Shown here piece after piece: positions 5,116-49,302 of a DNA stretch of 49,490 nt. Under the pieces are notes generated by a model, which ran no database searches, was not told the DNA's origin, and was given only the letters and a program-made list of their open reading frames with translations. The stretch is from an uncultured Gammaproteobacteria bacterium (GTDB lineage Bacteria; Pseudomonadota; Gammaproteobacteria; GCA-001735895): NCBI GenBank assembly GCA_963934675.1, contig CAWVZP010000003.1, positions 1 through 49,490 on the forward strand, written 5' to 3'. The position numbers and the translations under genes were made by a program. Positions within the stretch are counted from its first letter, which is position 1, and each line of letters opens with the position of its first letter.

Positions 5116-5192
<77 letters not shown>

Positions 5193-18305: not shown

Positions 18306-19328
18306 ATGTACAAGATCAAACTTCCATTGATGGCCAGTGTATTGGCTGTCGTTTTATCCACCAGCGCGCTAGCTGCCGAGGTGAATATTTATTCTGCTCG
18401 CAAAGAGGCTTTGATCAAACCATTGCTTGATAAGTTTAGCGCCGAAACGGGTATCAAAACCAATTTAATTACAGCCAAGGCAGACAAGTTGCTAACGCGC
18501 ATGATTAACGAAGGCCGTAATACCCCTGTGGATCTCTTTATTACCGTCGATGCTGGTCGCTTGCATCGTGCTAAGGAAGCCGACTTGTTACAATCCATCA
18601 ACAATAGCACTATCGAAAAAACGGTGCCTGCCCATCTGCGGGATAGTGATCAATACTGGGTTGGATTGTCTCAACGTGCGCGCGTTATTTTTTATGCAAA
18701 AGATCGAGTGAATCCAGCAGAACTCTCTACTTATGAAGATTTGGCCAATTCAAAATGGCAGAAACGTATTTGTATCCGAGGATCTGGCAATATTTATAAT
18801 CAGTCACTGGTTGCCTCTATGATTGCTGTGAATGGTCAAGCTGAAACTCAAAAGTGGGCGAATGCTTTAGTCGGCAACTTTGCGCGTGATCCTAAAGGTG
18901 GCGATAGAGATCAAATCAAAGCAGCAGCAGCAGGGCAGTGTGATTTGGCTATCGCTAATACTTATTACTATGGCAAAATGTTATCAAGCAAAAAAGATGA
19001 TGGACAAGTTGCAGCGGCTAACAAAATGGGTGTGTTCTGGCCGAACCAATCTGATCGAGGTGTGCATGTGAATATTAGTGGTGCAGGAATCAGTAAGTAT
19101 TCTAAAAACAAAGAGAATGCGATTAAGTTGCTTGAATATCTACTGAGCGACGAAGCCCAGAGCTGGTATGCAAGTGTGAATTATGAGTACCCAGTGAGTC
19201 AGTCGGCAAAGATTAGTGGCTTGGTTGCGCAGTGGGGCGACTTTAAAGCAGATACACTGAACCTATCGAGGTTGGGTCAGTTTAATTCTGATGCGGTTAA
19301 AACAATGGATAAGGCCAGTTGGAAGTAA
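18306..19328 (+). CDS. fbpA: Fe(III) ABC transporter substrate-binding protein (FbpA/FutA/IdiA type)
   Basis: Signal peptide, VNIYSAR, NIYNQSL, GGDRDQI, ANTYYY iron-ligand tyrosines. Confidence 0.93.
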   Translation: MYKIKLPLMASVLAVVLSTSALAAEVNIYSARKEALIKPLLDKFSAETGIKTNLITAKADKLLTRMINEGRNTPVDLFITVDAGRLHRAKEADLLQSINNSTIEKTVPAHLRDSDQYWVGLSQRARVIFYAKDRVNPAELSTYEDLANSKWQKRICIRGSGNIYNQSLVASMIAVNGQAETQKWANALVGNFARDPKGGDRDQIKAAAAGQCDLAIANTYYYGKMLSSKKDDGQVAAANKMGVFWPNQSDRGVHVNISGAGISKYSKNKENAIKLLEYLLSDEAQSWYASVNYEYPVSQSAKISGLVAQWGDFKADTLNLSRLGQFNSDAVKTMDKASWK

Positions 19329-19378
19329 TAATTTTTTAGATGAAGGTATTTATTTTTTGGTGATGGTTAATCAGACCG

Positions 19379-19407
19379 TTGCAACCTATCTGGGTGCGGA
19401 CTATTAT
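19379..19407 (+). promoter_or_regulatory. Putative internal sigma70 promoter for the permease/ATPase genes
   Basis: TTGCAA-17 bp-TATTAT. Confidence 0.5.
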
Positions 19408-19420
19408 CCGCACCCTTTTT
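19392..19420 (+). terminator. Intrinsic terminator between fbpA and fbpB
   Basis: GGGTGCGGA-ctatta-TCCGCACCC-TTTTT: perfect 9-bp stem plus T-tract. Confidence 0.75.
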
Positions 19421-19448
19421 GCGTTTTAGCAATAATGACTTGGTGATT

Positions 19449-21128
19449 ATGGCTTCGAAATCTGTCCATTTATCTCATACGACTTCCTATCGTCGATCAT
19501 GGTTTGATCGATGTTGGCAGCCAGGTATTGTCCTCACCGCACTGATATTCTCGATTCCTATCTTCACTATCGCTGGTTATATTTTTTTACCACCGGGCGA
19601 TATTTGGCAGCACTTGGTTGACACTGTTCTGCTGACTTATTTAATCAACTCAACGTTACTCATGGTTGGCGTTGGATTGGGCACATTATTAATAGGTGTG
19701 AGCTGCGCCTGGTTGACCAGTCTGTGTGAATTTCCAGGCAAAAAACTTTTTGTCTGGTCCTTGTTACTGCCGCTCGCAATGCCTGCCTATATTATTGCGT
19801 ACACTTATACTGGTATGTTTGATTTTGCTGGGCCGGTGCAAACAACGATACGTGACTTAACGGGTTGGGGGTACGGTGATTATTACTTTCCCGAGGTTCG
19901 TTCAATTGGTGGCGCTATTATTATGTTTTCGATGGTACTCTATCCCTATGTTTACTTGATGGCTAGGGCTGCCTTTTTGGAACAATCAGTTTGTGTGATT
20001 GAGGTGAGCCGGACGCTTGGTTGCAATGCTTGGATGAGCTTCTATCGAGTGGCATTGCCGTTGGCGCGGCCGGCTATTGTTGCAGGCTTATCGTTGGCAT
20101 TGATGGAAACTCTGGCTGACTACGGTACGGTGTCTTACTTTGGTTTAGGTGTGTTCACAACAGGTATTTTTAAAGCTTGGTTTGGCCTTGGTGATAGTGG
20201 TGCAGCTGCCAAACTTGCGGCCATTTTATTGTTATTTGTATTTACTCTGGTGATTATCGAAAGAGCGTCACGTAAACGATCGAAGTACCACCATACAACC
20301 AATCGTTATAGCCAGTTACCCCAATATAAGTTGACTGGATTTAAAGCATTGATGGCCTGCCTTGCTTGTTTAATGCCATTACTTTTTGGTTTTTTAGTGC
20401 CCGCTTTTCAGTTGAGCCTGTGGATGCTTGATACCTATTCTGAAATGGTCGACGCCTCGTTTGTTGAATTAACTATTAATACCGTAGCGCTTGGTTTAAG
20501 TGCTGCGGTGTTGGCCGTTGTACTCGCGTTATTTCTCGCTTATGGTAGGCGTATGATCGCTAGTAAGGTGGTTGTTTCATCAATCCGCATTGTCGCAACA
20601 GGTTATGCAATTCCAGGCACCGTAGTGGCTGTCGGCGTGATGATTCCATTTGCTTGGTTCGACAATGCACTTGATAGCTTTATGCGTCAGCAGTTTGATA
20701 TTTCTAGCGGGTTGCTGCTGAGCGGTAGTTTGTTTGCCGTCATGTTTGCTTATCAAGTCCGATTCCTTGCGATTTCAATACAAGCTGTCGAATCTGGGCT
20801 TGGTAAGATACGGCCATCGATGGATGAAGCTGCTCGATCACTCGGGTATAAGCCAACCGATGTTTTATTAAAAATTCACCTGCCTCTGATGAAAGGATCT
20901 GTCTTGACTGCGCTATTAATTGTATTTGTTGACGTCATGAAAGAACTGCCCGCAACGCTCATATTACGCCCGTTTAACTTTAATACACTCGCCATACGCG
21001 CTTACGAGTTAGCCTCGGATGAACGTTTGGCGGACTCATCCAGTGCCGCACTAATGATAGTCGCTGTTGGATTGTTACCTGTTATTCTACTTAGTAAGAG
21101 TATTTCCAGCTCAAGGGTCGGGTCATGA
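19449..21128 (+). CDS. fbpB: Fe(III) ABC transporter permease
   Basis: Two EAA-type loops (IEVSRTLG; MDEAARSLG) and multiple TM helices; ATG 19449 preferred over TTG 19419. Confidence 0.93.
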   Translation: MASKSVHLSHTTSYRRSWFDRCWQPGIVLTALIFSIPIFTIAGYIFLPPGDIWQHLVDTVLLTYLINSTLLMVGVGLGTLLIGVSCAWLTSLCEFPGKKLFVWSLLLPLAMPAYIIAYTYTGMFDFAGPVQTTIRDLTGWGYGDYYFPEVRSIGGAIIMFSMVLYPYVYLMARAAFLEQSVCVIEVSRTLGCNAWMSFYRVALPLARPAIVAGLSLALMETLADYGTVSYFGLGVFTTGIFKAWFGLGDSGAAAKLAAILLLFVFTLVIIERASRKRSKYHHTTNRYSQLPQYKLTGFKALMACLACLMPLLFGFLVPAFQLSLWMLDTYSEMVDASFVELTINTVALGLSAAVLAVVLALFLAYGRRMIASKVVVSSIRIVATGYAIPGTVVAVGVMIPFAWFDNALDSFMRQQFDISSGLLLSGSLFAVMFAYQVRFLAISIQAVESGLGKIRPSMDEAARSLGYKPTDVLLKIHLPLMKGSVLTALLIVFVDVMKELPATLILRPFNFNTLAIRAYELASDERLADSSSAALMIVAVGLLPVILLSKSISSSRVGS

Positions 21129-22201
21129 CGTCGCAACTCAAAATTAAAAATTTAGATGTTTTCTATGGTGATTACCAAGCACTGCATCAACTGTCGTTTA
21201 CCCTTGAACCGGGTAAAATTGGCTGTATGCTGGGTCCAAGTGGGTGTGGAAAAACCACAGTTTTACGTGCCATCGCTGGGTTCGAAGCGGTAACGAGTGG
21301 CAGTATTTTAATTGATCGACGAGAAGTCAGTGCTGCGCGCTTTAGCCTTCCACCAGAGATGCGCAATATCGGCATGGTATTTCAAGACTTTGCGTTATTT
21401 CCGAACATGTCGGTGGCTGATAATATTCGCTTTGGATTGAGGCTATGGAAGCCCAAGGAGCAAAAAATCCGCGTCCAGGAATTGCTCGCGATGATTGGCA
21501 TGCCGGCTTATGGTCAGGCCTTTCCTCACCAATTGTCGGGTGGTCAGCAGCAACGCATTGCTTTGGCTCGTGCGATGGCACCTAAACCCGGCATATTACT
21601 AATGGACGAACCCTTCTCAAGCATGGATGTTGAACTCCGCGAACAGTTGTGCCGTGAAGTCCGAGATATTCTCAATCAGGAAAATATTACAGCAATTTTG
21701 GTCACCCATGATCAATTCGAAGCCTTCGCTATGGCTGACGAAATATGTGTCATGAATGATGGAAAGATAGAGCAACAGGGCTCAGGGTATAATTTGTACC
21801 ACCGACCGAAAAACCGCTTTGTTGCTGATTTTATCGGGCAGGGTGTGATTATTCCTGGCACGGTGAAAGAGGATAATAAAGTCCATACGGAGCTAGGTGT
21901 AATTGCGGGTAATGAGTTAGAGGACAGTCAACCAGGAGATGCTGTAGATGTACTCATCCGTCCGGACGATGTGATTCATGACGACAACTCTGCAGATACA
22001 GCCATTGTTGTTGATAAATCGTTTCGTGGATCTGAATTTCTTTATTATCTGCGCATGGATAGCGGTATTGAAGTATTATGCTTGGCGCCGAGTCACCATG
22101 ATCACCCCATTAACGAGCGAATTGGTATTCAACTCAATGTCGATCATCTTGTTATATTTGATCGAAAACACACGATTGAAAATAAAATCTACTCAGAATA
22201 A
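21125..22201 (+). CDS. fbpC: Fe(III) ABC transporter ATP-binding protein
   Basis: GPSGCGKT Walker A, LSGGQQQR signature, MDEPFS, TOBE-like C-terminus; ATGA overlap with the permease. Confidence 0.92.
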   Translation: MTSQLKIKNLDVFYGDYQALHQLSFTLEPGKIGCMLGPSGCGKTTVLRAIAGFEAVTSGSILIDRREVSAARFSLPPEMRNIGMVFQDFALFPNMSVADNIRFGLRLWKPKEQKIRVQELLAMIGMPAYGQAFPHQLSGGQQQRIALARAMAPKPGILLMDEPFSSMDVELREQLCREVRDILNQENITAILVTHDQFEAFAMADEICVMNDGKIEQQGSGYNLYHRPKNRFVADFIGQGVIIPGTVKEDNKVHTELGVIAGNELEDSQPGDAVDVLIRPDDVIHDDNSADTAIVVDKSFRGSEFLYYLRMDSGIEVLCLAPSHHDHPINERIGIQLNVDHLVIFDRKHTIENKIYSE

Positions 22202-25797: not shown

Positions 25798-26178
25798 TAC
25801 ATTACCTATGGTTCTGGTTGGATTGAGATGGCATATGGCTAAATCGTAAACTTCTCACATACAACGGTTTAAGTTTCTCTTGTGATGGATATACATAAGA
25901 CCATAAAATTAAAAAGCAAGATCAACCTGAAATGAGCCATTATATAAAGACGAATAGTCCTTTTTTGAGTTAATACTATGCTCATTTTCAATCTTTTTAC
26001 TGTTTTCGACCCTATTATAGAGTGTCAGTCTCAAATGCTAGAAATAGACAAAAAGACTCTGTTACGGATTAGTAAAAAACACTACACTATGGGTATTAAA
26101 GTTTACAATTCAATCCAGTCAAGAATTGGCTCGTCGAAATTTTCTGCTAATATTAGCCAATAAATGAAAGGATTATCA

Positions 26179-26754
26179 ATGGGTACAAATCTGCTCGATG
26201 CAGAACTAGTCAAGCGTACGCAAGAAGGTGATTCGAAAGCCTTTGATATTTTAGTGCAAAAATACCAGCATAAAGTCATTAATTTGGTTGGAAGATTTGT
26301 GAATGATCATTCTGAATGCCAAGATATCGCACAAGATACTTTTGTTAAGGCTTATCGCGCAATTGGTAACTTTCGTGGAGACAGCCAGTTTTATACTTGG
26401 CTTTATCGTATCGCTGCCAATACAGCCAAAAACTATTTAGCATCAAGATCACGAAAATCGCCGTCTTATACCGTTGAAGTGGAAGATGCTGAGCATTTTG
26501 AAGGTGATTCAGGCTTAAAAGAATACACCACACCTGAAAATTTAATGCTAACGGAAGAGATTAAGCAAACTGTTTTTAAAGCTATTGAAGCATTGCCTGA
26601 AGACTTGAAATCAGCCATTACCTTGAGGGAAATCGAAGGTTTAAGTTATGAAGAAATTGCGGCTGTAATGGATTGTCCAATTGGTACGGTTAGGTCTAGA
26701 ATATTTCGCGCACGAGATGCAATTGATAAGGAACTAAGGCCGCTATTAGAGTGA
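26179..26754 (+). CDS. rpoE: ECF sigma factor RpoE (sigma24/AlgU)
   Basis: FRGDSQFYTWLYRIA, LSYEEIA, CPIGTVRSRIFRAR; ATG 26179 follows AAAGGA (alternative start 26164). Confidence 0.97.
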   Translation: MGTNLLDAELVKRTQEGDSKAFDILVQKYQHKVINLVGRFVNDHSECQDIAQDTFVKAYRAIGNFRGDSQFYTWLYRIAANTAKNYLASRSRKSPSYTVEVEDAEHFEGDSGLKEYTTPENLMLTEEIKQTVFKAIEALPEDLKSAITLREIEGLSYEEIAAVMDCPIGTVRSRIFRARDAIDKELRPLLE

Positions 26755-26798
26755 CTAAGTAGCCAATTAAAATAGAAACAATTTGTAAAGAGAATTTT

Positions 26799-27455
26799 AT
26801 GAATAATGAGAAACAAAAACTGTCTAATTTGCTTGATGAGTATTCATCCGAAGATACCGACCAACAGTCATTAGATGATTTATTAGGCGATGTTAATCAA
26901 CAATATTGTATAAAGCGTTATCAGATGATTGGCCAAGTGATGCGTCACGAGCTGGCTGATCAAATCGATACTGAATTTAGCGAAAATGTAATGAGAAAAA
27001 TTCGTGTTATCAAAACAGATGGTAAGACGATGGTTAGCCAGCAGGCTGTTAATCAAAATAAAGTAAAGACAATTTGGCACTGGGGGTTCCTAAAACCTAT
27101 TGCTGGTATGGCAGTAGCGGCGTCTGTTGCGATTGTTTCGATTACACTTTGGCAGTCGGTGTCGGTCACAACAGGTTCTTCAGTCTCGGGTGAATCAATT
27201 GTTAGTGCCGAACAGAAAAAAATCGATTTGCTTGTGAAGCAACCGATTCAAGCGGCTGTTCCAGCATCAGCCATGCTCGGCAATGCTAGTACAAATTCTA
27301 ATAGTAATAGCGGTATGCATTGGAAAGTAATTAGTGACGCGCCCGCATTAGAGCGAAAGTTAAATGCTTATCTAATTAACCACACAGAATATTCTAAATC
27401 CATACAAGGATTTATTCCCCAGGCGCGAGTTGCCGGATATGGTTCTGAAAAGTAG
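26799..27455 (+). CDS. rseA: Anti-sigma-E factor RseA/MucA
   Basis: LSNLLD and RYQMIGQVMR N-domain, TM AVAASVA, LNAYLINH; follows rpoE. Confidence 0.88.
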   Translation: MNNEKQKLSNLLDEYSSEDTDQQSLDDLLGDVNQQYCIKRYQMIGQVMRHELADQIDTEFSENVMRKIRVIKTDGKTMVSQQAVNQNKVKTIWHWGFLKPIAGMAVAASVAIVSITLWQSVSVTTGSSVSGESIVSAEQKKIDLLVKQPIQAAVPASAMLGNASTNSNSNSGMHWKVISDAPALERKLNAYLINHTEYSKSIQGFIPQARVAGYGSEK

Positions 27456-27507
27456 TTTAGATATATCAATATATGTTTGGTCGCACATTGAGTTAAATGG
27501 CAATTAA

Positions 27508-28482
27508 TTGAAAATTAAATATACCTCTCTAATCCCTTTCTTGATTTTGTTGGTTGTAACCTCAACGGCAAACGCAATGCCTGCCATGGACTGGGTTCAG
27601 AAAATGTCTGAGTCGATGCGAAATTTAAGCTATCAAGGAAACTTTGTATATATGCACGAGAACCAACTCGAAAGCATGTCGATTCTTCATCTCAAAGATG
27701 AATATGGTGAAAAAGAGCGATTACTCTCTTTAAACGGTGAGGCCCGTGAAGTTATTCGCGACAATAAAAATCTCACCTGTATTTGGCCATCAAGCCGAAC
27801 TGTGGTCATCGATTACTCCAAACAGAACCGCTTTTCACCTTTATTCATCCCCGATGATATCGCTAATATTATTTTGTTTTACGATCTATTATTGGCAGGT
27901 AAGGACAGGGTCGCTGGACATAATGCTATTGTGATTCATATCTCTCCAAAAGATCAGCTCAGGTATGGTATTAAATTGTGGATAGCTGAAGAGAGCGGGT
28001 TATTAGTTAAATCAAGTTTGATTAACGAGCTTGGTGAGCCAGTAGAGCAGGTTATGTTTACCAATCTTGAAATACTGCCAGTTAATCATGAGTTAACACT
28101 CGATATTATGCCAGAACTTGATGAAAGCTTTACTATGATTCGTTATCACCAAGGCGAACCCTCCGAAGAGTCTTCGTCTGATATAACTTGGCATTTAAAA
28201 GAAATGCCAGGGGGGTTCCGACAAGAATCAATGTTAAAACGAAAAGTATCAGAAACCGGTTTATATGCACATCAAATGGTATTCACTGATGGGTTAGCTT
28301 CGCTTTCGGTATTTATTGAAAAGCAATCAATGCAGAAACATTGGGGTAATACCTCCATGGGTGCGGTCAATGCTTTTATACGTATTGTTGATGGTTATTC
28401 AATAACAGCCATTGGAGAAGTACCTGCGGTTACCGTTCAAACAGTGGCGGAATCAGTTTTTTATCAAGAGCCTGATAAATAG
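27508..28482 (+). CDS. rseB: Sigma-E regulatory protein RseB/MucB
   Basis: Signal peptide, LSYQGNFVY, RVAG, DQLRYG, FTDGLASLSVFIE, GEVP. Confidence 0.93.
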   Translation: MKIKYTSLIPFLILLVVTSTANAMPAMDWVQKMSESMRNLSYQGNFVYMHENQLESMSILHLKDEYGEKERLLSLNGEAREVIRDNKNLTCIWPSSRTVVIDYSKQNRFSPLFIPDDIANIILFYDLLLAGKDRVAGHNAIVIHISPKDQLRYGIKLWIAEESGLLVKSSLINELGEPVEQVMFTNLEILPVNHELTLDIMPELDESFTMIRYHQGEPSEESSSDITWHLKEMPGGFRQESMLKRKVSETGLYAHQMVFTDGLASLSVFIEKQSMQKHWGNTSMGAVNAFIRIVDGYSITAIGEVPAVTVQTVAESVFYQEPDK

Positions 28483-28512
28483 TATTTATGCTGTTTCGAT
28501 TTAATTATTTTA

Positions 28513-28874
28513 GGACATCTCTAAAAAATTATGCTTTCTGCAGTTACTGTTTCACAAGCTTTCGCTTCTGCAGAATCAGGCTGTTACGCATTTTATACAC
28601 AGATTCTTTACTCGAACGTACCCTTAAATACATGACGGCTCTTGGGAGCTTTTTCTTTGCTACTCCACCTTTGGAGCGCCGAACCGCTGCATCCTTACAG
28701 TCAATTACGTGGTGGCTATTTGGGCTTTGTGGCTTTGCTCTGCGTGCCAGCTGTCGACTGTTGTCTCCACCGCGCTCCGGCTTCTTGAATTTATTGCCAA
28801 GTATGTTGGGTTCCTGCTTTTGGTCCAGGAGCAAAAAAATAGACACTAAAACAACATTCTTGTTAGAACCTCTA
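28513..28874. mobile_element. MITE-like repeat, copy A (between rseB and rseC)
   Basis: Left end GGACATCTCTAAAAA; both ends align with the reverse complement of 40679-41021 (gcaaaaaaatagac-actaaaacaacattcttgttaga vs gcaaaaaaacagaccacgaaaaaatcactatttttaga). Confidence 0.65.
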
Positions 28875-28892
28875 CTAGGATGAGATTTATAA

Positions 28893-29336
28893 ATGATTAA
28901 AGAACAAGCCACAGTCATTGGTCTCTTTGGTAATATTGCCGAAGTGCAAACGAAACGCCAAATTGCTTGTAGCCAATGTGAGGCTGGCCGTGGCTGCGGA
29001 ATTGGGGCAATAGGTCGCTTGCTTGGAAAGCGCAGTAAACCGGTTAAGATTAAAGTCGACCAAGATTTAAAGCTAGGTGACCAAATAGAAATAGGTCTAT
29101 CAGACAAGGCTTTCTTAAGGGCAGGTTTACTGATTTATGGCACGCCACTACTAGGTTTGTTCCTAGGTCTGATGTTGGCTGAGCTTATTAGTCCAAGCTC
29201 TGATTTGATCGCTTTTACGTTTTCCTTTATCGGATTGGTTCTGGGGCTAACTACCTCTGCTAGTGTTGCCAAAACCAATTTTGCTAATCAACTCAATCCT
29301 AAAATTTTAGCCGTTATGAATGAACTTGATGATTAA
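28893..29336 (+). CDS. rseC: RseC/MucC family protein
   Basis: MIKEQATV, CSQCEAGRGCG, LIYGTPL, two C-terminal TM helices. Confidence 0.92.
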   Translation: MIKEQATVIGLFGNIAEVQTKRQIACSQCEAGRGCGIGAIGRLLGKRSKPVKIKVDQDLKLGDQIEIGLSDKAFLRAGLLIYGTPLLGLFLGLMLAELISPSSDLIAFTFSFIGLVLGLTTSASVAKTNFANQLNPKILAVMNELDD

Positions 29337-36807: not shown

Positions 36808-36859
36808 AGTGTATCCCCACACTAGGTAAATAAGTTTAATTATTTCGAGTCAATCGTCA

Positions 36860-37016
36860 GGGCTGTTCTAGAGATATTTTTCGGGATTGTCTCTCGGCCT
36901 CGAAGCACTTACTGTTGGTTCATCATTACACGGGTGTAACTTATTAGAGCAATGCAGGAGCAATTGCTGAGCGATAAAACAGTCACGAGGAAATACGGCT
37001 ACTTTTAGTGGCGCAC
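36860..37016. mobile_element. Short MITE-like repeat, copy C (between recO and barA)
   Basis: 36931-37020 aligns with the reverse complement of about 40674-40769 (gggtgtaa..attaga.c..tgcaggag.c.attgc.gagcg..aaaacag.cacga..aaat..cta.ttttag); ends GGGCTGTTCTAGAG and CTTTTAGTGGCGCAC-TTAA. Confidence 0.7.
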
Positions 37017-37034
37017 TTAAAGGCTCTTCTATCA

Positions 37035-39776
37035 TTAACTTCTATTATCCATCTCTTTTAGTAACTGCTGGGTTTCGTTTCGAATGTTGTCTAATTCTTC
37101 ATTGACTTCCAATACGATAGCTTGCTGCTGGCTATTTGAACAGGTCGCTATTGACTTTTGCCACGATATAATTTGTTGTTTTAACCGGGGTAGGCTTGTA
37201 TAGCAGGTAGTGCCATGAAGTTTGTGAAGTATTGCAGATAGCCTTTCCCTATCATTTTTTAATGCAGCAGATTTTAACTGTAGTTGTAAGATAGGTACGT
37301 CGCTAATTAAAATATTAAGAATCTTACGCAGGGTGATTTTGTTGTTTTGAGACAGCTTTAACGACTGTTCGAAATCAATTGAAAGCTTTGAGTCATGACT
37401 ATTTTTGGGGAATTCTTGTTCTTGATTTTGTTCTGTTAGGCTATTACTGATGTGACCTGAGCCATCCAAGATACTGCGAAATTTTTCTTCATCAACGGGT
37501 TTGCTAAGATAATAATTGAAACCTAGTTTCAATAATCTTTGTGGCTCGTCATTAAGAATGTTCGCAGTCATCGCGACAATTGGTGTTTGGTCTAGCGGTT
37601 TTGCACTACGCATCATTTTAAGTAATTGTATACCATCAATCTCAGGCATTTGTATATCGAGAACAATGAGGTCGAAGGAGTCTCTTTGGTAAAGGGCCAT
37701 TGCCTCGAGCGCCTTCTCCGCTTCAGAAACCTGGTGACCCCATAGGCCGATTAGCTCGCTGGCCAATTTAAGGTTTATTTGATTATCATCAACCAGCAAA
37801 ACCTTTTTTGAGGTGACGGGTAAGGAGAATATTTGTGAAGCAGTGGCAATTGTAGTACTTTCATTTTTAGGCCTATTAAGTGCCTTTTTTAAATTATCAC
37901 TGTTGATTGTAGTAGAAATAAAATCTAATTCTAAATTCAATTGCGGTCTAATCATCGTTTGGTCGTAATGCATGACGAGCATATGAGTCTGTTCCATAGA
38001 AATATTGGCCAAGATTTCATTCAAATTTAGGTTGAAATGACGCAAATCAATCGCTAAATAATCAATGTGTTTCAAGTTTTTTCGAATATTTGAATTGATT
38101 GATTCGGCACTATCAGACATAGATATTAACATTGACTCGGTGGCAATCTTTGCTCCGTCAAACAGCGACGTGATTTCTTGTAAACAATTGACCCTACTAG
38201 ATAAAATAAGCGCCAATTTATTATTGCTATGATCTAAGAGATCAGTTTCAACAGGAGATGATGTCAATAAAAACGGTAGGCGTACTGAAAATTTGGTACC
38301 AATCCCTAGTTTGCTTTGCATTGATATCTCACCAGCCATTAATCTAATTAGATTTTTACTGATGACGAGCCCTAATCCTGTACCTGTAAAACGTCGGTTT
38401 GTCGACGTGTCAACTTGGCTAAATGCTTGAAATAGATTTTCCTGATCCTTTTTAGATATGCCTATACCGGTATCTTCAACGGTGATTAAAATAGTGACGT
38501 CGGACTCTGTCTGTTGTTCTACCGTCACTCTGACCATTACCTCGCCTTCATCAGTGAACTTGATTGCGTTGCCTATCAGGTTTAGTAGTACTTGTTTAAG
38601 TCTGAGCTTGTCACCCCAAACAAAACGAGGGGTATCGCTATAAATGATCAAAATAAGGTCAATGTTTTTTGACAATACATTTATAAAAAGAAGATCTCTG
38701 GCTTGTTGAATAGTTTCGTAGAGGTCGAAATTGTCATCGACTATCTGAAGTTTTCCCGATTCCATTTTAGAAAAATCTAGAATTTCACTGATGATATCAG
38801 TTAAGTCATTGGTCGATTTAAGGATGATATCTGCGTATCGCTGTTGGGTTGGGTTTAAGTCAGATTGGGACATCAAGTTAATGAAGCCTTTTATGCCATT
38901 GATAGGTGTTCTTATTTCATGACTCATATTAGTCAAAAAAATAGATTTTATTTTGTTGGCATTTTGAGCTTCATCTTTGGCGAATTTGAGTTCGCTATTT
39001 TTACCCTTAAAATCATCAATTACGTCGCTTAATTGTTTCGTGGCGAACAGAACCTTATCATTCAAATCGTTTCTATTGTTTAGTAACGCCTCAGTCATTT
39101 GATTAAATCCTTTCTGCAATTTACCAATTTCATTGCTTTCTAATGACTCAATAGGTTCACCAAGCTGACCATTCTCAACTTTTTTAATATGTTCTAGTAA
39201 TTTGAATATAGGACGAGTAATTCCCCCGCTTATAATCGCACTAAGTATGAGGGCAATAAATAGAATTGAGATGAAAAAAAATATTGAACGATAGAGTATT
39301 TTTTCTTTTTCTTTTTCAAGTTGTTTACGAGAGATATTGAGGTGTACCCAACCAATTATTCGATTTTTTTCGTCGTAGTTGTGATCAGGCTTGAACACAT
39401 CAGGGTCGTGAATACTTTGTGTGATAATGGGTAAACGATAGTAAAAATAATTGGCAGTTTTTTGGGGGTCGTATTCGATCGAAATCGATAATGCAATCGC
39501 CTCACTATTTTCGTCATATACCGATGCGAATATAACCGCATTTGTATTTATAGTTTTGTTAAGTAAGCGTTGAATTTGACCATAATTACCTGAAAGCATA
39601 TTAAATTCAGATGCACCAGCGAGTTGTTTGGCAATAATTTGGCCTTTGCTTTGAAGAAGGTTGTATGCCTGGTCGACATTATTAGTGAAGTGGGTGTAGG
39701 TAAAGAAAACGTCAACTAACAATGCTGGAATCAGTGCGATGAGAAATATTTGATACTTGATACCCAGTTTTTTCAT
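37035..39776 (-). CDS. barA: Hybrid sensor histidine kinase, BarA/GacS type
   Basis: Two TM helices with periplasmic domain, HAMP, FLTNMSHEIRTPING H-box, N/G boxes, degenerate plus intact receiver (LDIQMP), HPt LHKLHG; near cysM/rlmD as gacS is in other gammaproteobacteria. Confidence 0.85.
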   Translation of the reverse strand: MKKLGIKYQIFLIALIPALLVDVFFTYTHFTNNVDQAYNLLQSKGQIIAKQLAGASEFNMLSGNYGQIQRLLNKTINTNAVIFASVYDENSEAIALSISIEYDPQKTANYFYYRLPIITQSIHDPDVFKPDHNYDEKNRIIGWVHLNISRKQLEKEKEKILYRSIFFFISILFIALILSAIISGGITRPIFKLLEHIKKVENGQLGEPIESLESNEIGKLQKGFNQMTEALLNNRNDLNDKVLFATKQLSDVIDDFKGKNSELKFAKDEAQNANKIKSIFLTNMSHEIRTPINGIKGFINLMSQSDLNPTQQRYADIILKSTNDLTDIISEILDFSKMESGKLQIVDDNFDLYETIQQARDLLFINVLSKNIDLILIIYSDTPRFVWGDKLRLKQVLLNLIGNAIKFTDEGEVMVRVTVEQQTESDVTILITVEDTGIGISKKDQENLFQAFSQVDTSTNRRFTGTGLGLVISKNLIRLMAGEISMQSKLGIGTKFSVRLPFLLTSSPVETDLLDHSNNKLALILSSRVNCLQEITSLFDGAKIATESMLISMSDSAESINSNIRKNLKHIDYLAIDLRHFNLNLNEILANISMEQTHMLVMHYDQTMIRPQLNLELDFISTTINSDNLKKALNRPKNESTTIATASQIFSLPVTSKKVLLVDDNQINLKLASELIGLWGHQVSEAEKALEAMALYQRDSFDLIVLDIQMPEIDGIQLLKMMRSAKPLDQTPIVAMTANILNDEPQRLLKLGFNYYLSKPVDEEKFRSILDGSGHISNSLTEQNQEQEFPKNSHDSKLSIDFEQSLKLSQNNKITLRKILNILISDVPILQLQLKSAALKNDRERLSAILHKLHGTTCYTSLPRLKQQIISWQKSIATCSNSQQQAIVLEVNEELDNIRNETQQLLKEMDNRS

Positions 39777-41068
39777 TGTGACAACTCGTTTAATCTGTCG
39801 GTTATTTTTTCTTCATTGGGTAGATTGATGCCGAGCGCACGAGCCACTCTGCTATTTACCTTGATTGAAAAATATTGTGCAAATTGGATGATTGGCTTGG
39901 TTTGCTGGCGCTTAACGATTAAATGTTTGATAACAGATGCTAGTTGCAAACCTATGTCTGAAGGTGATGAAAATATTGAGGCCAGTGCCCCGGCTTTAAC
40001 ATGTGAAGGTGAATAACTGACGATGGGTTTTCTACTGCGATATGATGTTAGCAAAATACCTTTGAGCGTATTACTATTATAGATATTGTCGTCGGGCAGT
40101 AATAAAAAAGCATTATTATTTTTCAACAGTTGCCTGACTGTTGTTAATAAATTGGTCTGTTTCTGAAATTCATATTGTTCAAGTTTGAAGTGAAATTTTT
40201 CGAGTATATCTTGCTGTTTATTGTTTAGCATTAATTTGTCTGAGCTAACGATACCGACCGAACTAGGCTGCAACATCAGAGCAGTGAAAGCTAGATATCG
40301 TGATAATGGTTGGTCGAGTAAAACTAGGCTGTGATGTTTAAGTTTGGCCTGATGTCGTTGCTTTTGATTTAATGTGAGATAAGCGCTGACTATATTTTTA
40401 GTGTCATATCTTCTAGCTATTTCAAGAGCAGCATCAATGCCAAGAGTAATAATGATGTCGCTGGCCTGTATTTTCTGGTGTTGGGTGTTAACGGTATCAG
40501 CGTTAATGACCGTTACTTGGAAAGCGTCACCTAATTCACGACTTAGACTTTGATTAGTTTGTTTAAAGTAAGAATTATCATTGCTCTGGATAACGCTAAT
40601 TTGTACATTGGCTGCCGTGAGTGGCAGTAGTAGGCTCGGGACTACTAATAGCAATCCTAGTAAAAGTGGTTTATTAACGGGTGACTCTAAAAATAGTGAT
40701 TTTTTCGTGGTCTGTTTTTTTGCCGCTCGGCAATAGCTCCTCCTGCAACGTTCTAATTTCTTACACCCCCGTAAAAAGGCACTAATAGAAAGCGCGATGT
40801 GGCGAAACAGGCTGGCATACATGTCACTCATGGCAATAAGTTTAAGGACACCGAGTAAACATCGAGTGGAGAATCTCAATGTACGTGAAGTACATGAGGA
40901 TCGACCGAGCTGGCGCACCAGCACAGAGCTAATGTATATGGATGCTTGGTATATTGATTTTGCATGAACACAAAAATCAGTGAAGCTTGGATTACGGAAA
41001 AATTGCATTTTTAGATATGCCTTTATGTAAAAAGCCAGCCTCCTTGCTGAATTTTTCCTTATTCCCAT
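39773..41068 (-). CDS. Periplasmic ABC-type substrate-binding-like protein (orphan); codons about 16-130 derive from an in-frame repeat insertion
   Basis: Hydrophobic signal h-region PLLLGLLLVVPSLLLPLTAA; LLLPDDNIYN, YSPSHVKAGALASI and VNSRVARALGI resemble ABC_sub_bind-type proteins; ATGA overlap with the kinase. Confidence 0.75.
   Translation of the reverse strand: MGIRKNSARRLAFYIKAYLKMQFFRNPSFTDFCVHAKSIYQASIYISSVLVRQLGRSSCTSRTLRFSTRCLLGVLKLIAMSDMYASLFRHIALSISAFLRGCKKLERCRRSYCRAAKKQTTKKSLFLESPVNKPLLLGLLLVVPSLLLPLTAANVQISVIQSNDNSYFKQTNQSLSRELGDAFQVTVINADTVNTQHQKIQASDIIITLGIDAALEIARRYDTKNIVSAYLTLNQKQRHQAKLKHHSLVLLDQPLSRYLAFTALMLQPSSVGIVSSDKLMLNNKQQDILEKFHFKLEQYEFQKQTNLLTTVRQLLKNNNAFLLLPDDNIYNSNTLKGILLTSYRSRKPIVSYSPSHVKAGALASIFSSPSDIGLQLASVIKHLIVKRQQTKPIIQFAQYFSIKVNSRVARALGINLPNEEKITDRLNELSQ
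40679..41021. mobile_element. MITE-like repeat, copy D (inside the 5' end of the binding-protein ORF)
   Basis: Imperfect TIRs GGGTGACTCTAAAAAT..ATTTTTTC and GAAAAATT..ATTTTTAGATATGCC; internal GGCAATAGCTCCTCCTGCAACGTTCTA and ATGTAC-gtgaa-GTACAT; homologous to copies A-C. Confidence 0.75.
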
Positions 41069-41074
41069 TTTCGA

Positions 41075-43063
41075 TTAAAACCCGCTACTAAGCCTTAAAA
41101 AAAAGATTTTTTCTGCAATGTTTTCTGGCCTGTAATCACTGTATTCTTCAAGTAAGTTTTGTCCAATAATCTCGATCTGTGTGTTACCTTCCTGAGAAAT
41201 GGTGTAAGCGTAACGTAAGTCCAGCTTGTTGAATGCAGGCCGGACTGATGCGCCCTGTATCCATCGCACTTCGTCCAAATAATAATAAGATGTCGAAACA
41301 TGATGTCTGTCACGTAAATGATAACGCATGTGCAGAAATCCTGTTTTCTCCGAAAAGGAAGCCGCATAGGTGGTTACATTCGATTCTACCTCAATCAGAC
41401 TGAGGCCAGTCTGAAATGTCAGTCCGGTAATCGGATGGTAATCGAATGATAGTTCTACACCTGACACTTGGCTTTTGCCACTATTGATATAAGTTTGCAC
41501 GGCCTGATTTATCCCCAAGGTGGCGTGGGGTACCTCGATTTTGGTATTGATGATCTGGTCAGAGATAGTATAAGTGAATAGTTTGATATCACTGCCTATG
41601 CTGGCATGACTCAGTTGACTGCGTAGCCCAATCTCGTAAGAAAGGATATTTTCAGGCTTGATGTTCGGATTACCTAGGTTAAGTAAAATATCGGCCTGAA
41701 CCGGTCCAGCACCCGGCACGGTACCGCTAACGGTGGAAACCGAGTGAGCAGAAACCTCAAAGAAAAGTGGGTTTCGCTTTGCCTTCGAAATGACAAGGCG
41801 TAATGCATGCTCACTAGACATGTTTCGGATTATAGACAATCTGGGTGAATATTCGAGCTCAGTCAAGCTGGAGTTTTCTACCGATGTCCCAAAATCAAGC
41901 AGCCAGTTCTTGTTAATGCGCCACTCAACACCACCGAAAAATCGACCTGTGTTGACATAGTGAGGCTTGTTTTCCTTATCAAGTAAGGGTGACTGAATTC
42001 TGTCATGCCTAAATCCAGCACCATACACCAGTCGCAGGGCTGAAGAGAACTCTTCGGTTAGTATTACCTCAACATCAGTTCTGTCTGACTTTCTACTTTC
42101 GTCGATGAGTGCAACCGCATTAGGAACTGGACCCAAAGCAAATGGGAGTGAATTATATTGATCGGCCACCTCTTGCAAAGTATGCGTCAACTTTAAAATA
42201 GTATTGGTGGTATCGCCAACGGCCTCCCATTGCAAGTTGAAGTAAATATTGGTGGATTCCTGTTCTCGTATTCCATTCCCTACAGATTTGTGGCTACCTG
42301 TACCTGCCGTGCTGTCACTGCCACCCAACTGAAACGTCCAGAACTGATTATGGGCAGAAACCAGGTCAAGACGAAAGTTGGCAGTATTGATTTTTTTACT
42401 GTCGTGGACATTAATAAAGCCCTCATCGTTTCGGGTGCCAGCACTGAGACGCCAGTCTAAATCACCAACATGGTAACCGTGCCGGACATAAGCATCTTTA
42501 ATGTTCGGGTTAGCATTGTCGCTGGCGGTGACTGAATAACGCGCGTCAATATCTTCGGCGGCGTCTCTGGTGATAATATTAATAGTAGCTAAAAAGGCGT
42601 TTGCACCGTAGGTTACTGCGTTTGGGCCACGAATTACTTCAATACGTTCGATATCTTCAATTAATAGCGGTAAGTTTGACCAAGGGATTCCACCAAATGA
42701 AGGGACAAATACTGATCGACCATCAATTAAAACCTGCATTTGACGTTCATATTGTCCACCATTGCCGTGGTAGCTGACGACAGGAGTATTACCATTTAAA
42801 AAGCCCACAATAAAGCCCGGTACCAGGCGAAATAGCTCCGATACGTCACGAACGCCAGAGGCTTCAATAGTGTCCCTATTAATAATACTGACTGTAGCAG
42901 GTGCTTCAAGTAGGGGTTTACTCATGCGTGAAGCGGTTAGTACGAGCGGTCCATCTTCAAAAAAATCTGAACCAGCAGAGGTATTTATGTTTGAACTCCA
43001 TAATGGTGAAGAACAAATCAGCAAAAAAGCACAGTTAATAGTATTAAAATGACGAAAATACAA
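41075..43063 (-). CDS. TonB-dependent outer-membrane receptor
   Basis: Signal peptide, VLTASR TonB-box region, plug (LFRLVPG; IERIEVIRGPNAVTYGANA), beta-strand pattern, NLL, terminal Phe. Confidence 0.92.
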   Translation of the reverse strand: MYFRHFNTINCAFLLICSSPLWSSNINTSAGSDFFEDGPLVLTASRMSKPLLEAPATVSIINRDTIEASGVRDVSELFRLVPGFIVGFLNGNTPVVSYHGNGGQYERQMQVLIDGRSVFVPSFGGIPWSNLPLLIEDIERIEVIRGPNAVTYGANAFLATINIITRDAAEDIDARYSVTASDNANPNIKDAYVRHGYHVGDLDWRLSAGTRNDEGFINVHDSKKINTANFRLDLVSAHNQFWTFQLGGSDSTAGTGSHKSVGNGIREQESTNIYFNLQWEAVGDTTNTILKLTHTLQEVADQYNSLPFALGPVPNAVALIDESRKSDRTDVEVILTEEFSSALRLVYGAGFRHDRIQSPLLDKENKPHYVNTGRFFGGVEWRINKNWLLDFGTSVENSSLTELEYSPRLSIIRNMSSEHALRLVISKAKRNPLFFEVSAHSVSTVSGTVPGAGPVQADILLNLGNPNIKPENILSYEIGLRSQLSHASIGSDIKLFTYTISDQIINTKIEVPHATLGINQAVQTYINSGKSQVSGVELSFDYHPITGLTFQTGLSLIEVESNVTTYAASFSEKTGFLHMRYHLRDRHHVSTSYYYLDEVRWIQGASVRPAFNKLDLRYAYTISQEGNTQIEIIGQNLLEEYSDYRPENIAEKIFFLRLSSGF

Positions 43064-46880: not shown

Positions 46881-48191
46881 TTACAATCCCCGATTATCGT
46901 CCTGATCGGATAGTTCTTCTGCAGCATCGAGTTGTTCTAGCTCATCGTTGGCAACTGCTTCGGCGTAATCGACTGCGTCGGGAGCATTGTATTCGGCAAT
47001 TGGCGTACCAATCGAACCATAGGCAATGAAAGCAGACTGGTCTTTCACATCCAGACCGGCGCGGGATTGAATCCGAATCATTGTAAAAAGTAGTATCAGG
47101 ACAAATATAGTGGCAATCCCCCAGAAGAAAAATGTCACGTTATAGAAATCCATGAAGAAGGCGACGATAATTGGCCCCGTACTTAAACCGATGCCCGATA
47201 CCATCACCAGGCTACCGCTGGCCCCCACGATTTGACCCGGTTCGAGCCGGTCGTTAGCGTATGCGATACAAATTGAATACATTGGCATAGCCGCACCACC
47301 GAGTAGCAGTATGCTAGCAAAAAACGCAGGACTACCCTTTGGTAACACGATTGCGATCATGCAGGCGGCAATCGCGATGATTGAAATAACTGACATAACG
47401 AGGCGGCGGTTCACTCGATCTGAAATGTAACCAATGGGCCATTGTGTAATTAGGCCGCCTACCAGGAAACAGGCCATAAATATTGAAATTGATTTAACAT
47501 CGCCTAATACAGTACTAGCGTAGATAGCGCCCATTCCAAAAAAAGTGCCGTGGGCCATTCCGGTCAACCCATTACCGATAACCGCCAAAGGCGACGCTTT
47601 ATACAGCTCGATCAACGACATGGTTTGGGAGTAACCGAAAGTGGGTGCAGGTTTAGCCGTTAGTAACATCGGAATCAGGCCAAAGGAAATAATGACCGAA
47701 GTAAGAATGAATAGATCAATCGAACTGGGCTCTGCTAAATTGAGCAAAAATTGACCTGATCCCATTCCCGCTGTCGTTAGAACCATGTAAACCGACAAAA
47801 CCTTGCCACGCGTTTCGTTACTGGCACGATCGTTCAACCAGCTTTCGGTGACGACATAGATTCCGGCAAAACAGATGCCAGTAACAATTCGCATTAATGT
47901 CCAGCCTAGCGGCGTGATATAGACTCCGTGCAACAGGATAGAAATTGAGGCAAGCGAAGCCAGAGCCGAAAAAACTCGAATATGCCCAACCCGTTGAACC
48001 AGATATGGCGCCAGAAATGAACCGATGAAAATGCCAATGAAATAACCCGACATCATGATGCCAGTGGTAAAAGTTGAGAACCCTTCTACACCTGCGCGGA
48101 CACCGAGCAAGGTCCCTTGCAGCCCATTGGCTAGCATCAGGCATGCAATACCGAGCAAAATAGCCCACGATGCCGACAGATCTTTCCACAT
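46881..48191 (-). CDS. MFS transporter (YcaD-like)
   Basis: About 12 TM helices, RVGHIRVF, ESWLN, WPIGYISDRVNRR, AYANDR. Confidence 0.88.
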   Translation of the reverse strand: MWKDLSASWAILLGIACLMLANGLQGTLLGVRAGVEGFSTFTTGIMMSGYFIGIFIGSFLAPYLVQRVGHIRVFSALASLASISILLHGVYITPLGWTLMRIVTGICFAGIYVVTESWLNDRASNETRGKVLSVYMVLTTAGMGSGQFLLNLAEPSSIDLFILTSVIISFGLIPMLLTAKPAPTFGYSQTMSLIELYKASPLAVIGNGLTGMAHGTFFGMGAIYASTVLGDVKSISIFMACFLVGGLITQWPIGYISDRVNRRLVMSVISIIAIAACMIAIVLPKGSPAFFASILLLGGAAMPMYSICIAYANDRLEPGQIVGASGSLVMVSGIGLSTGPIIVAFFMDFYNVTFFFWGIATIFVLILLFTMIRIQSRAGLDVKDQSAFIAYGSIGTPIAEYNAPDAVDYAEAVANDELEQLDAAEELSDQDDNRGL

Positions 48192-48238
48192 AAAATTAAC
48201 TCAATTGAGTGTAGTTGGTTAAAACAGATTATTTGAAC

Positions 48239-48250
48239 TAGACCGTTTGA
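48239..48250. repeat. 12-bp motif TAGACCGTTTGA, copy 1, upstream of the MFS gene
   Basis: Identical to 49437-49448. Confidence 0.5.
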
Positions 48251-48414
48251 AACTGGCTATTTCACAGTCTGTGTCGATCATTCTAAGCGCGCGGATATTA
48301 ATAGTGTTTTTGTCATTTAACAGTTTTAAATGCGACGCATCAAAGTGGATTAAACGTCAGTTGGGCCTTATTGATACTTGGACTTAACTAAAGGAGGTTC
48401 ATATTAAACCAAGT

Positions 48415-49302
48415 TCATATTAAATCAGGGTATGCCATTTCAGTTGCTTGCTGCTCCAAATCCAAAATAGAGTGATATTGACTTAGTTCAACATCAATAA
48501 ACTCAACCAGCCGCAGACATTGCCGATGTTGATCAGGTAATAGAGCTAGTGCTTTATTGAGCATTAAAGTGAGTCGCTTGGGGTCAGTTTTTTTCAGTCT
48601 TGAATTTGGCATAACAAACGGTAATCCACAAGTTTTTACGCTATAGCCAATCGCTTTTACTTGGACTGCAAGCTCCGGCCAGGCATCTGCAATAAGCGCA
48701 AGGCTAACGCTGTCGATAGCAGCGATATCGGCTCGACCTTCACTCACCTCGATCAAACTTTGCCTATGTGAACCGGATTCGATCAAGCGAGTAAAAAAGG
48801 GTTTCCCCTTTCCTTTTTTGTGGGCCAGCGGTGCCAGTGCATGACGAAACACATTCATACCGCTATTTGAATCTCGACCATTGAATGCAGCAACCCCTTG
48901 ATAACTATCGTAAAGTGATTGGATTTCACTATTGATTGAGGCGATAAATATGCTGGAGTAATACCTGACATCGTTGCCAGCAGCATCAGTATCAATATTT
49001 ATATCAGCATTTACATTAAAGATGGGCACGCAGATTGGACTCAGTAAATCTTGTAGGCTTTTCATCAGTGGATAGCCGCAGGTATGACCCATAAATAGAT
49101 AATCATCGCGCAACGTTGTCGCATCCGTATCGAAGCGTAGCGTAGGGTCCAGAATGTCACCGATATCGTTATTGTCTTGGGCCAAACTGTAAAACAGATC
49201 AAACAGTACCCGCCACGCTAGTTTTAAATCATCGGTAAAGGCATACATGCCACAGCTGATGAATGGAGGCGTTGCACGTCGAAGATCGTTAGTTGATGTC
49301 AT
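48415..49302 (-). CDS. PhnD/phosphonate-binding-like protein without a signal peptide
   Basis: HTCGYP, YSSIFI, AAFNGRDSNSG, SGSHRQS, ADIAAIDSV, GLPFV. Confidence 0.8.
   Translation of the reverse strand: MTSTNDLRRATPPFISCGMYAFTDDLKLAWRVLFDLFYSLAQDNNDIGDILDPTLRFDTDATTLRDDYLFMGHTCGYPLMKSLQDLLSPICVPIFNVNADINIDTDAAGNDVRYYSSIFIASINSEIQSLYDSYQGVAAFNGRDSNSGMNVFRHALAPLAHKKGKGKPFFTRLIESGSHRQSLIEVSEGRADIAAIDSVSLALIADAWPELAVQVKAIGYSVKTCGLPFVMPNSRLKKTDPKRLTLMLNKALALLPDQHRQCLRLVEFIDVELSQYHSILDLEQQATEMAYPDLI

Follow-up and report, generated by a model that had tools for sequence, protein, structure and literature searches.

Some bacterial sensor kinases receive their signal through a periplasmic binding protein (SBP) that is encoded beside them. 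Here, we compare with such systems a cassette of three genes, coding for a TonB-dependent outer-membrane receptor, an SBP and a BarA/GacS-type hybrid sensor kinase, in a 49,490-nucleotide stretch of DNA (hereafter the window) from an uncultured Gammaproteobacteria bacterium (assembly GCA_963934675.1, contig CAWVZP010000003.1, positions 1 to 49,490). The closest described system is the signalling chain for polycyclic aromatic hydrocarbons of Cycloclasticus sp. P1, which consists of the receptor PahS (687 aa), the SBP PahP (318 aa), the kinase PahK (771 aa) and PahR, annotated as GacA (Wang et al., iScience 2023, PMC10570129; gene table in PMC8547461). That paper reports, on the evidence of surface plasmon resonance, co-immunoprecipitation, two-hybrid assays and Förster resonance energy transfer, that PahP has two partners, PahS and PahK, and that it moves from the former to the latter in response to the hydrocarbon; its role lies in signalling rather than in nutrition. 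PahK is stated there to have no periplasmic sensor domain and is not called a GacS/BarA orthologue (PMC10570129). The idea of receptor–SBP–kinase signalling is therefore already published in outline.

An SBP that is free of transport and encoded beside a kinase as its ligand-binding subunit is likewise found in LuxP–LuxQ, TorT–TorS, CBP–ChiS and XylFII–LytS, as described in a review of SBP-dependent signalling (PMC8050422). Those SBPs belong to other families, whereas the one in the window is a PF04392 protein, lies downstream of a TonB-dependent receptor gene and has as its predicted partner the sCache_4 domain found in sensors of the BarA/GacS type. When the review was searched by term, it returned no GacS, TonB or PF04392, and "BarA" occurred only in author names (PMC8050422). 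Full-text literature searches found no paper that ties the PF04392 family to GacS/BarA.

In many Gammaproteobacteria, secondary metabolism, virulence and the biofilm way of life are under the master control of GacS/BarA kinases, whose input signal is, to our knowledge, a long-standing question. The locus described here gives a handle on it, namely a soluble SBP that can be purified and screened for ligands. We consider it probable that the three genes together constitute a single cassette for periplasmic sensing that feeds the Gac/Csr pathway. The module is real and coherent, and the signal most likely passes from the receptor through the SBP, acting as a co-receptor, to the GacS-type kinase. 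For this genome alone, such a result is an ordinary annotation with a published precedent. Beyond the Cycloclasticus paper, it adds that the kinase is orthologous to BarA/GacS and that the cassette is widespread, together with an exchange of outputs, in which the SBP follows the sCache_4 domain even where the output is turnover of cyclic di-GMP, and a specific, mutable docking motif (Asp126, Phe128) predicted by a complex model.

The link between the window and the Pah system is one of analogy. The two share the order receptor–SBP–kinase, similar protein sizes, the lack of a transporter and an unlinked GacA-type regulator, all compared by order, sizes and description with PMC10570129 and PMC8547461. 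They differ in that the kinase of the window is of the full BarA type with an Hpt domain, stands in the rlmD/cysM slot and carries sCache_4, while PahK is said there to lack a periplasmic sensor domain. The window comes from an uncultured organism that is related to a gutless-worm symbiont and has no connection with the degradation of hydrocarbons. When the fetched loci were searched for PahP by length and six pocket residues, no match was obtained.

Arrangement of the Three Genes

The genes for the receptor (41075-43063; 662 aa, TTG start; Pfam Plug and TonB barrel), the SBP (39773-41068; 431 aa as read; PF04392) and the tripartite kinase (37035-39776; 913 aa) are arranged head to tail, all of them on the minus strand, in the list of open reading frames (ORFs). 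The receptor stop ends at 41075 and the ATG of the SBP starts at 41068, leaving a gap of 6 bp, and the SBP stop overlaps the kinase start in the letters ATGA. These coordinates and codons bear out the sequence-only reading, made from the letters and the ORF list of the window, which had described three co-oriented, tightly packed genes. As the SBP–kinase arrangement recurs in 42 of 42 related loci, it is not due to chance.

Among the ORFs of the window, no ATP-binding cassette (ABC) ATPase or permease adjoins the trio. The sole ABC system present lies at 18306-22201 and has its own SBP from another family.

Metatranscriptome contigs of 153-556 nt cover parts of all three genes; being 90-97% alike to the window, they come from relatives. 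In two runs with these contigs, in which only 6-7% of the sampled words were present and DNA carry-over is possible, none bridged a gene junction by at least 31 letters, a result that fits a single transcript as well as several.

Orthology of the Kinase to BarA/GacS

The Pfam analysis of the kinase gave the tripartite architecture sCache_4-HAMP-HisKA-HATPase_c-REC followed by Hpt, the last at 23.0 bits, just below its cut-off of 24.6. The periplasmic sensor domain comprises residues 30-160 (39297-39689, minus strand), with the sCache_4 match at 36-157. The best of 152 NCBIfam families was BarA (NF008318), which aligned residues 1-908 of the kinase to positions 1-919 of 920 with a score of 547.7 bits. 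Because this full-length score stays below the equivalog cut-off of 890 bits, the kinase is a distant rather than a close BarA orthologue. Its identity to E. coli BarA is 29% end to end (E 2e-113), and it is the only full-length BarA match in the genome (82.7% complete, 359 contigs).

The neighbourhood points the same way. The cassette is flanked by cysM, an exonuclease gene and rlmD, and barA likewise adjoins rlmD in E. coli K-12. Elsewhere in the genome, directly upstream of uvrC, lies the gene for a regulator resembling GacA/UvrY (262.4 bits; cut-off 280), and csrA was also found. The system thus resembles BarA/UvrY-CsrB of E. coli and GacS/GacA-Rsm of Pseudomonas in kinase architecture, end-to-end alignment, the rlmD neighbour, the GacA-like gene beside uvrC and the presence of csrA; the E. 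coli barA locus differs in having neither a receptor nor an SBP gene. Judged by its sequence relationships, the kinase is the BarA/GacS orthologue of this bacterium, as had been proposed from the letters of the window.

The Binding Protein and Its Insertion

The SBP matched PF04392 (ABC_sub_bind) with 37.8 bits against a gathering threshold of 25.9, in its C-terminal half only. The AlphaFold2 model of the mature protein, with a predicted local distance difference test score (pLDDT) of 94.3, has a two-lobe type I fold and in structure most resembles the PF04392 proteins CD0873, 3LKV and 3LFT (Foldseek top hits 6HNI/6HNJ, 3LKV and 3LFT), of which 3LFT is a complex with L-Trp. The fold and the Pfam match together place the SBP in PF04392. 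The monomer model is closest to the open form (6HNJ, TMq 0.68, vs 0.52 for the closed 6HNI), and LuxP and XylFII-LytS are among its structural neighbours. An atlas search with the SBP returned PF04392 clusters only, and the genome has one PF04392 gene. The ligands in PF04392 structures are L-Trp, L-Tyr and L-Phe, according to a survey (PMC10443332).

While the homologues of the SBP measure 297-317 aa, the frame in the window is longer by about 120 aa because a 348-nt dispersed repeat sits in it in frame. The alignment with insertion-free relatives places this insertion at 40677-41024 and the part homologous to the relatives at 39776-40672, both on the minus strand. The insertion stands after codon 15, between the charged start (n-region) and the hydrophobic core (h-region) of the signal peptide. 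We regard it as a dispersed repeat since pieces of it match at least 10 further contigs of this assembly with 70-100% identity; terminal inverted repeats were not found in it. In the nearest relative (G017), the copy of the insertion measures 345 nt, and the original start falls outside the ORF. The frame is also open across the insertion in two close proteins of the database, both 431 aa long.

Both insertion carriers retain an internal ATG, a Lys/Arg-rich stretch and an intact hydrophobic core, which may serve as a replacement signal peptide. The true N-terminus of the SBP may accordingly be the internal ATG near 40830, and the gap between the receptor and SBP genes would then be about 240 bp instead of 6 bp. 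It should be noted that the repeat stretch showed extra depth and loose ends in the metatranscriptome contigs, as expected with copies elsewhere.

Conservation among Close Relatives

The set of close relatives consisted of 42 species loci obtained by a profile scan of genome contigs and overlaps with a set of 24 congeners, 16 of which have the SBP. All 42 records are of uncultured Gammaproteobacteria, and one of them bears the title Olavius algarvensis Gamma 3 endosymbiont. The SBP gene is directly followed by the kinase gene in the same recO/cysM slot in 42/42 loci, and the 4-nt overlap between the two is kept in 36/42. The receptor gene lies upstream in 28 loci (in pieces in L076) and is absent from 12, while two loci are cut by the contig end. 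Conservation of the whole trio, which the sequence-only reading had made a test of its case, therefore holds for the SBP–kinase pair but only in part for the receptor.

Several relatives show a decaying cassette. The receptor is in pieces at L076 3953-6963, the SBP is frameshifted at L095 4084-5089, and a degenerate SBP in G006 (L044 3328-4020) is reduced to a 230-aa remnant. In G012, the contig opens with a remnant of the receptor, which joins the start of the kinase directly, so that the SBP is missing (L214 3-137).

One locus (L056, JBLHID010000022.1, 3841-14765) contains a tandem cysM-receptor-SBP block, in which the second cysM is partial and the kinase follows the second SBP only; the block may be a genuine duplication or a product of misassembly. 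The records of L055 and of this locus bear the Bacteroidota names Urechidicola sp. and Polaribacter sp. yet show the gammaproteobacterial gene order and 75-97% protein identity to the window, and these contigs or bins are probably mislabelled.

Spread across the Class and Exchange of Outputs

The profile of the SBP family matched 77/400 sampled genomes and 62/320 genera, that is, about one fifth of the sampled genomes of the class, including those of cultured Sulfurivermis and Thauera species. The expectation that barA/gacS would seldom stand in such an operon was thus not confirmed, the arrangement being common outside the model organisms. The class-level set contained 80 SBP loci, from which 58 proteins were analyzed with Pfam. 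In 74 of the 80, a homologous sensor N-terminus is encoded directly downstream of the SBP; the receptor lies directly upstream in 55, and both neighbours are present in 53. The remaining six comprise a contig end (L128), trmO downstream (L157, L178), a sensor gene upstream instead (L181), a truncated SBP (L191) and a dCache GGDEF-EAL protein (L206).

The downstream partners share sCache_4-HAMP and vary in their output. Most loci have the BarA-type relay. A PAS-hybrid kinase output was found at L137 and L151, with sCache_4 detected, and at L165, L168, L169 and L196, with HAMP and no sCache_4 match. PAS-GGDEF-EAL outputs occur at L132, L139, L140, L155 and L171 (L155 without an sCache_4 match), GGDEF-EAL outputs at L204-L206, and kinases of 771-791 aa without Hpt, comparable with PahK in length, at L183 and L164. 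Because the sensor stays constant across these differing outputs, the SBP travels with the sensor module and not with the output, indicating a functional link to the sensor.

An ABC ATPase ORF, recognized by Walker A and LSGGQ, was found in none of the 42 + 80 loci. The adjacent ABC permease and ATPase with which PF04392 proteins are expected to work are thus missing from the window and from all 122 loci, in agreement with the sequence-only reading, which had noted no such neighbour and had proposed a survey of permease versus receptor, kinase or GGDEF neighbours; that survey came out on the side of the sensor.

At four class-level loci (L153, L174, L184, L187), a REC-GerE regulator gene stands directly upstream of the SBP in the place of the receptor. 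None of these regulators is clearly orthologous to GacA, and the best NCBIfam matches of the one scanned (L174) are of the ErdR/NarL type and not GacA. Apparent SBP–sensor fusions at L148, L171, L180 and L196 were rejected as wrong-frame open frames in high-GC genomes.

Predicted Docking of the Binding Protein on the Sensor Domain

The modelling of a complex that the sequence-only reading had proposed was carried out with the mature SBP and residues 30-160 of the kinase. The interface score ipSAE was 0.85, 0.80 and 0.77 (median 0.80), and all three controls gave 0.00. In the calibration, the mark was reached by 116/157 solved complexes and by 2/215 mismatched pairs, counts that are rough here because the model was made with our own alignments of 93 rows. 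The runs share at least 94% of their contacts, and the pLDDT of the partner is at least 89.

In the model, residues 119, 121-133 and 139 of the kinase meet the cleft of the SBP, which is a conserved surface, and the contacts with the lowest error are those of Phe128. The predicted docking element is a sensor loop of residues 121-133 (39378-39416, minus strand) that includes Asp126-Val127-Phe128; both the model and the distribution of the motif point to it. Docking of the SBP on the sensor is thereby supported as a prediction. The proposal that the SBP presents a ligand to the periplasmic domain of the kinase stands in part: the gene overlap, the co-occurrence and the model argue for the coupling of the two proteins, but a simple hand-over of the ligand does not agree with a cleft that, in the model, is filled by the kinase loop.

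A loop of a membrane partner also enters the cleft of an SBP in the maltose importer MalFGK2, where the "scoop loop" of MalG reaches into maltose-binding protein. That similar loop belongs to a transport cycle, whereas here it is predicted to dock the SBP on a sensor.

The loop motif follows the presence of the SBP. Aligned Asp126 and Phe/Tyr128 were found in 36/36 SBP-linked sensors of the close clade and in 31/57 at the class level, together 67/93, compared with 2/40 sensors from genomes that have no SBP match and no SBP gene upstream. Meanwhile, the framework residues Pro116, Ile117 and Gly142 are kept in all groups. The kinase of the window keeps the complete Asp-Val-Phe-x-Pro-Asp loop, and its carrier relatives have S/T-DVF-x-P-D, while the congeners without an SBP have lost parts of the motif (AGVFAP-G, PVVFAPGG and ASAGTA-G among G022, G019 and G016). 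E. coli BarA has no Phe at this position. On the SBP side, Gln121, Pro122 and Arg125 of the cleft are retained by 97-100% of the proteins with a motif-bearing partner vs 69-85% otherwise, although the lower conservation outside such partners may reflect greater divergence. The tally of 183/400 in the loop test includes two unpublished genomes that were not used further.

The Receptor

The receptor has a Plug domain at residues 51-157 and a barrel of the 22-strand type at 204-623. Pfam found no STN N-terminal signalling extension on it. It differs in this from the TonB-dependent transducers that work with an extracytoplasmic function sigma factor and an anti-sigma factor, and no such pair adjoins it; rpoE-rseABC at 26164-29336, roughly 8 kb distant and on the opposite strand, is the housekeeping set.

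The best NCBIfam match of the receptor is the TOL_0244 family (NF053590) with 181.8 bits, below the cut-off of 645, so that it is not a member. The receptors of 20 related loci scored 137-247 bits with this model, and for 19/20 receptors adjoining SBP homologues it was the best family, always below the cut-off. Sharing the best family in this way, the receptors beside the SBP form one co-inherited clade. The protein that gave the family its name rose sevenfold on C28 alkane in Thalassolituus, as reported in PMC6304351.

As loci without the receptor occur both among the close relatives and at the class level, it is not essential to the SBP–kinase pair. This pair is the core of the cassette; the receptor, though frequent, is a dispensable addition.

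Proposed Mechanism and Alternative Explanations

In the mechanism that we favour, the receptor would admit or hand over a ligand, probably a hydrophobic or aromatic one, and the transporter-less PF04392 protein would act as a co-receptor. It would dock on the sCache_4 domain of the kinase through the Asp-(Val)-Phe loop, which would enter its cleft, and the kinase would signal by a His-Asp-His relay to the GacA-type regulator encoded elsewhere. The cassette would in this way feed the Gac/Csr global regulatory pathway. That its task is signalling rather than transport, as had been suggested from the sequence, is consistent with the 122 transporter-free loci and with the experiments on the Pah system (PMC10570129).

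Several points speak against this mechanism. The signal peptide of the SBP is split by the insertion, so that export of the protein is no more than presumptive, and the ligand of the cassette is putative. The complex is likewise a prediction made from our own alignments with a rough calibration, and 26/57 class-level SBP-linked sensors are without the aligned Asp/Phe pair. The related genomes behind the motif counts are not independent, and the SBP-linked rows also built the profile with which the controls were aligned. Four congeners (G022, G016, G019, G012) keep the kinase without the SBP. The receptor has no counterpart in 12/42 close-relative loci, where cysM or the exonuclease gene is directly upstream, and is absent by the criteria used from at least 25/80 class-level loci. 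The 19 PF02653 permease matches elsewhere in the genome make a distant ABC partner possible, and the assembly is only 82.7% complete.

Alternatively, the SBP could be a fixed structural subunit with no small-molecule ligand, the Phe loop of the kinase being its only "ligand" and the receptor merely a co-inherited or Gac-regulated neighbour. The model, in which the kinase loop fills the cleft, agrees with this, as do the persistence of the SBP–kinase pair without the receptor in 12/42 close loci and the resemblance of the monomer model to the open form. Nevertheless, we hold this to be unlikely, since receptors of one clade upstream of the SBP in 55/80 class-level loci point to a shared function, and the Pah system shows ligand-dependent changes of affinity (PMC10570129). 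The receptor and the SBP could also be an uptake pair for an ABC importer encoded elsewhere, with the gacS neighbourhood reflecting only co-regulation. PF04392 proteins of solved structure have aromatic amino acids as ligands and are as a rule counted among the ABC components (PMC10443332), and the PF02653 matches offer candidate permeases. However, the absence of an ABC ATPase signature from 122 loci and the single PF04392 gene in the genome do not fit an importer, nor do the tracking of sCache_4-HAMP by the SBP even with a GGDEF-EAL output, the 4-nt kinase overlap kept in 36/42 loci and the co-variation of the loop motif with the SBP, which leaves this explanation improbable.

Least probable in our judgement is that the cassette is decaying in this genome, with the SBP no longer exported because of the insertion and the kinase acting alone as in the SBP-less congeners. 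The split signal peptide and the decay in relatives (the receptor of L076, the frameshift of L095, the degenerate SBP of G006 and the loss of the SBP from G022, G016 and G019) would agree with it. The frame, however, is open through the insertion here and in the two database proteins of 431 aa, the internal ATG, the Lys/Arg-rich stretch and the intact core are present in both carriers, the mature part is undamaged, and the loop of the kinase is complete.

A broader proposal can be put forward only tentatively. The periplasmic domain of BarA/GacS-type sensors may in origin be a docking site for a PF04392 co-receptor, whose aromatic-ligand pocket would receive the tethered Asp-x-Phe loop of the sensor. 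An aromatic or hydrophobic compound let in by the TonB-dependent receptor would join or displace this loop and so switch Gac/Csr, and in sister sensors the turnover of cyclic di-GMP would be controlled likewise. GacS/BarA of the model organisms would then be derived forms whose co-receptor was lost. If this were true, the loss would explain why their signal has been hard to find.

Other Features of the Window

On one side, the trio is flanked by lepA, lepB, a DUF4845 gene, rnc, era and recO, and on the other side by cysM, a PolB-type exonuclease gene, rlmD and a P-II gene. The remainder of the window is core housekeeping DNA. The 227-nt spacer after the kinase (36808-37034) was inspected for a Csr-like small RNA, and a GGA-rich pattern was not seen in it; Rfam likewise gave no match to a Csr/Rsm-type small RNA in the window. 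Scans returned fewer promoter-like sites than in shuffled sequences (16 vs 20.7) and only a slight excess of terminator-like sites (7 vs 4.5).

Near the end of the window, a gene for a major facilitator superfamily transporter and one for a phosphonate-type (PhnD-like) binding protein with no ABC partner in view lie at 46881-49302 on the minus strand. The only Rfam match in the window is a tRNA gene at 5116-5189 on the plus strand, just upstream of rimP-nusA-infB-rbfA-truB-pnp.

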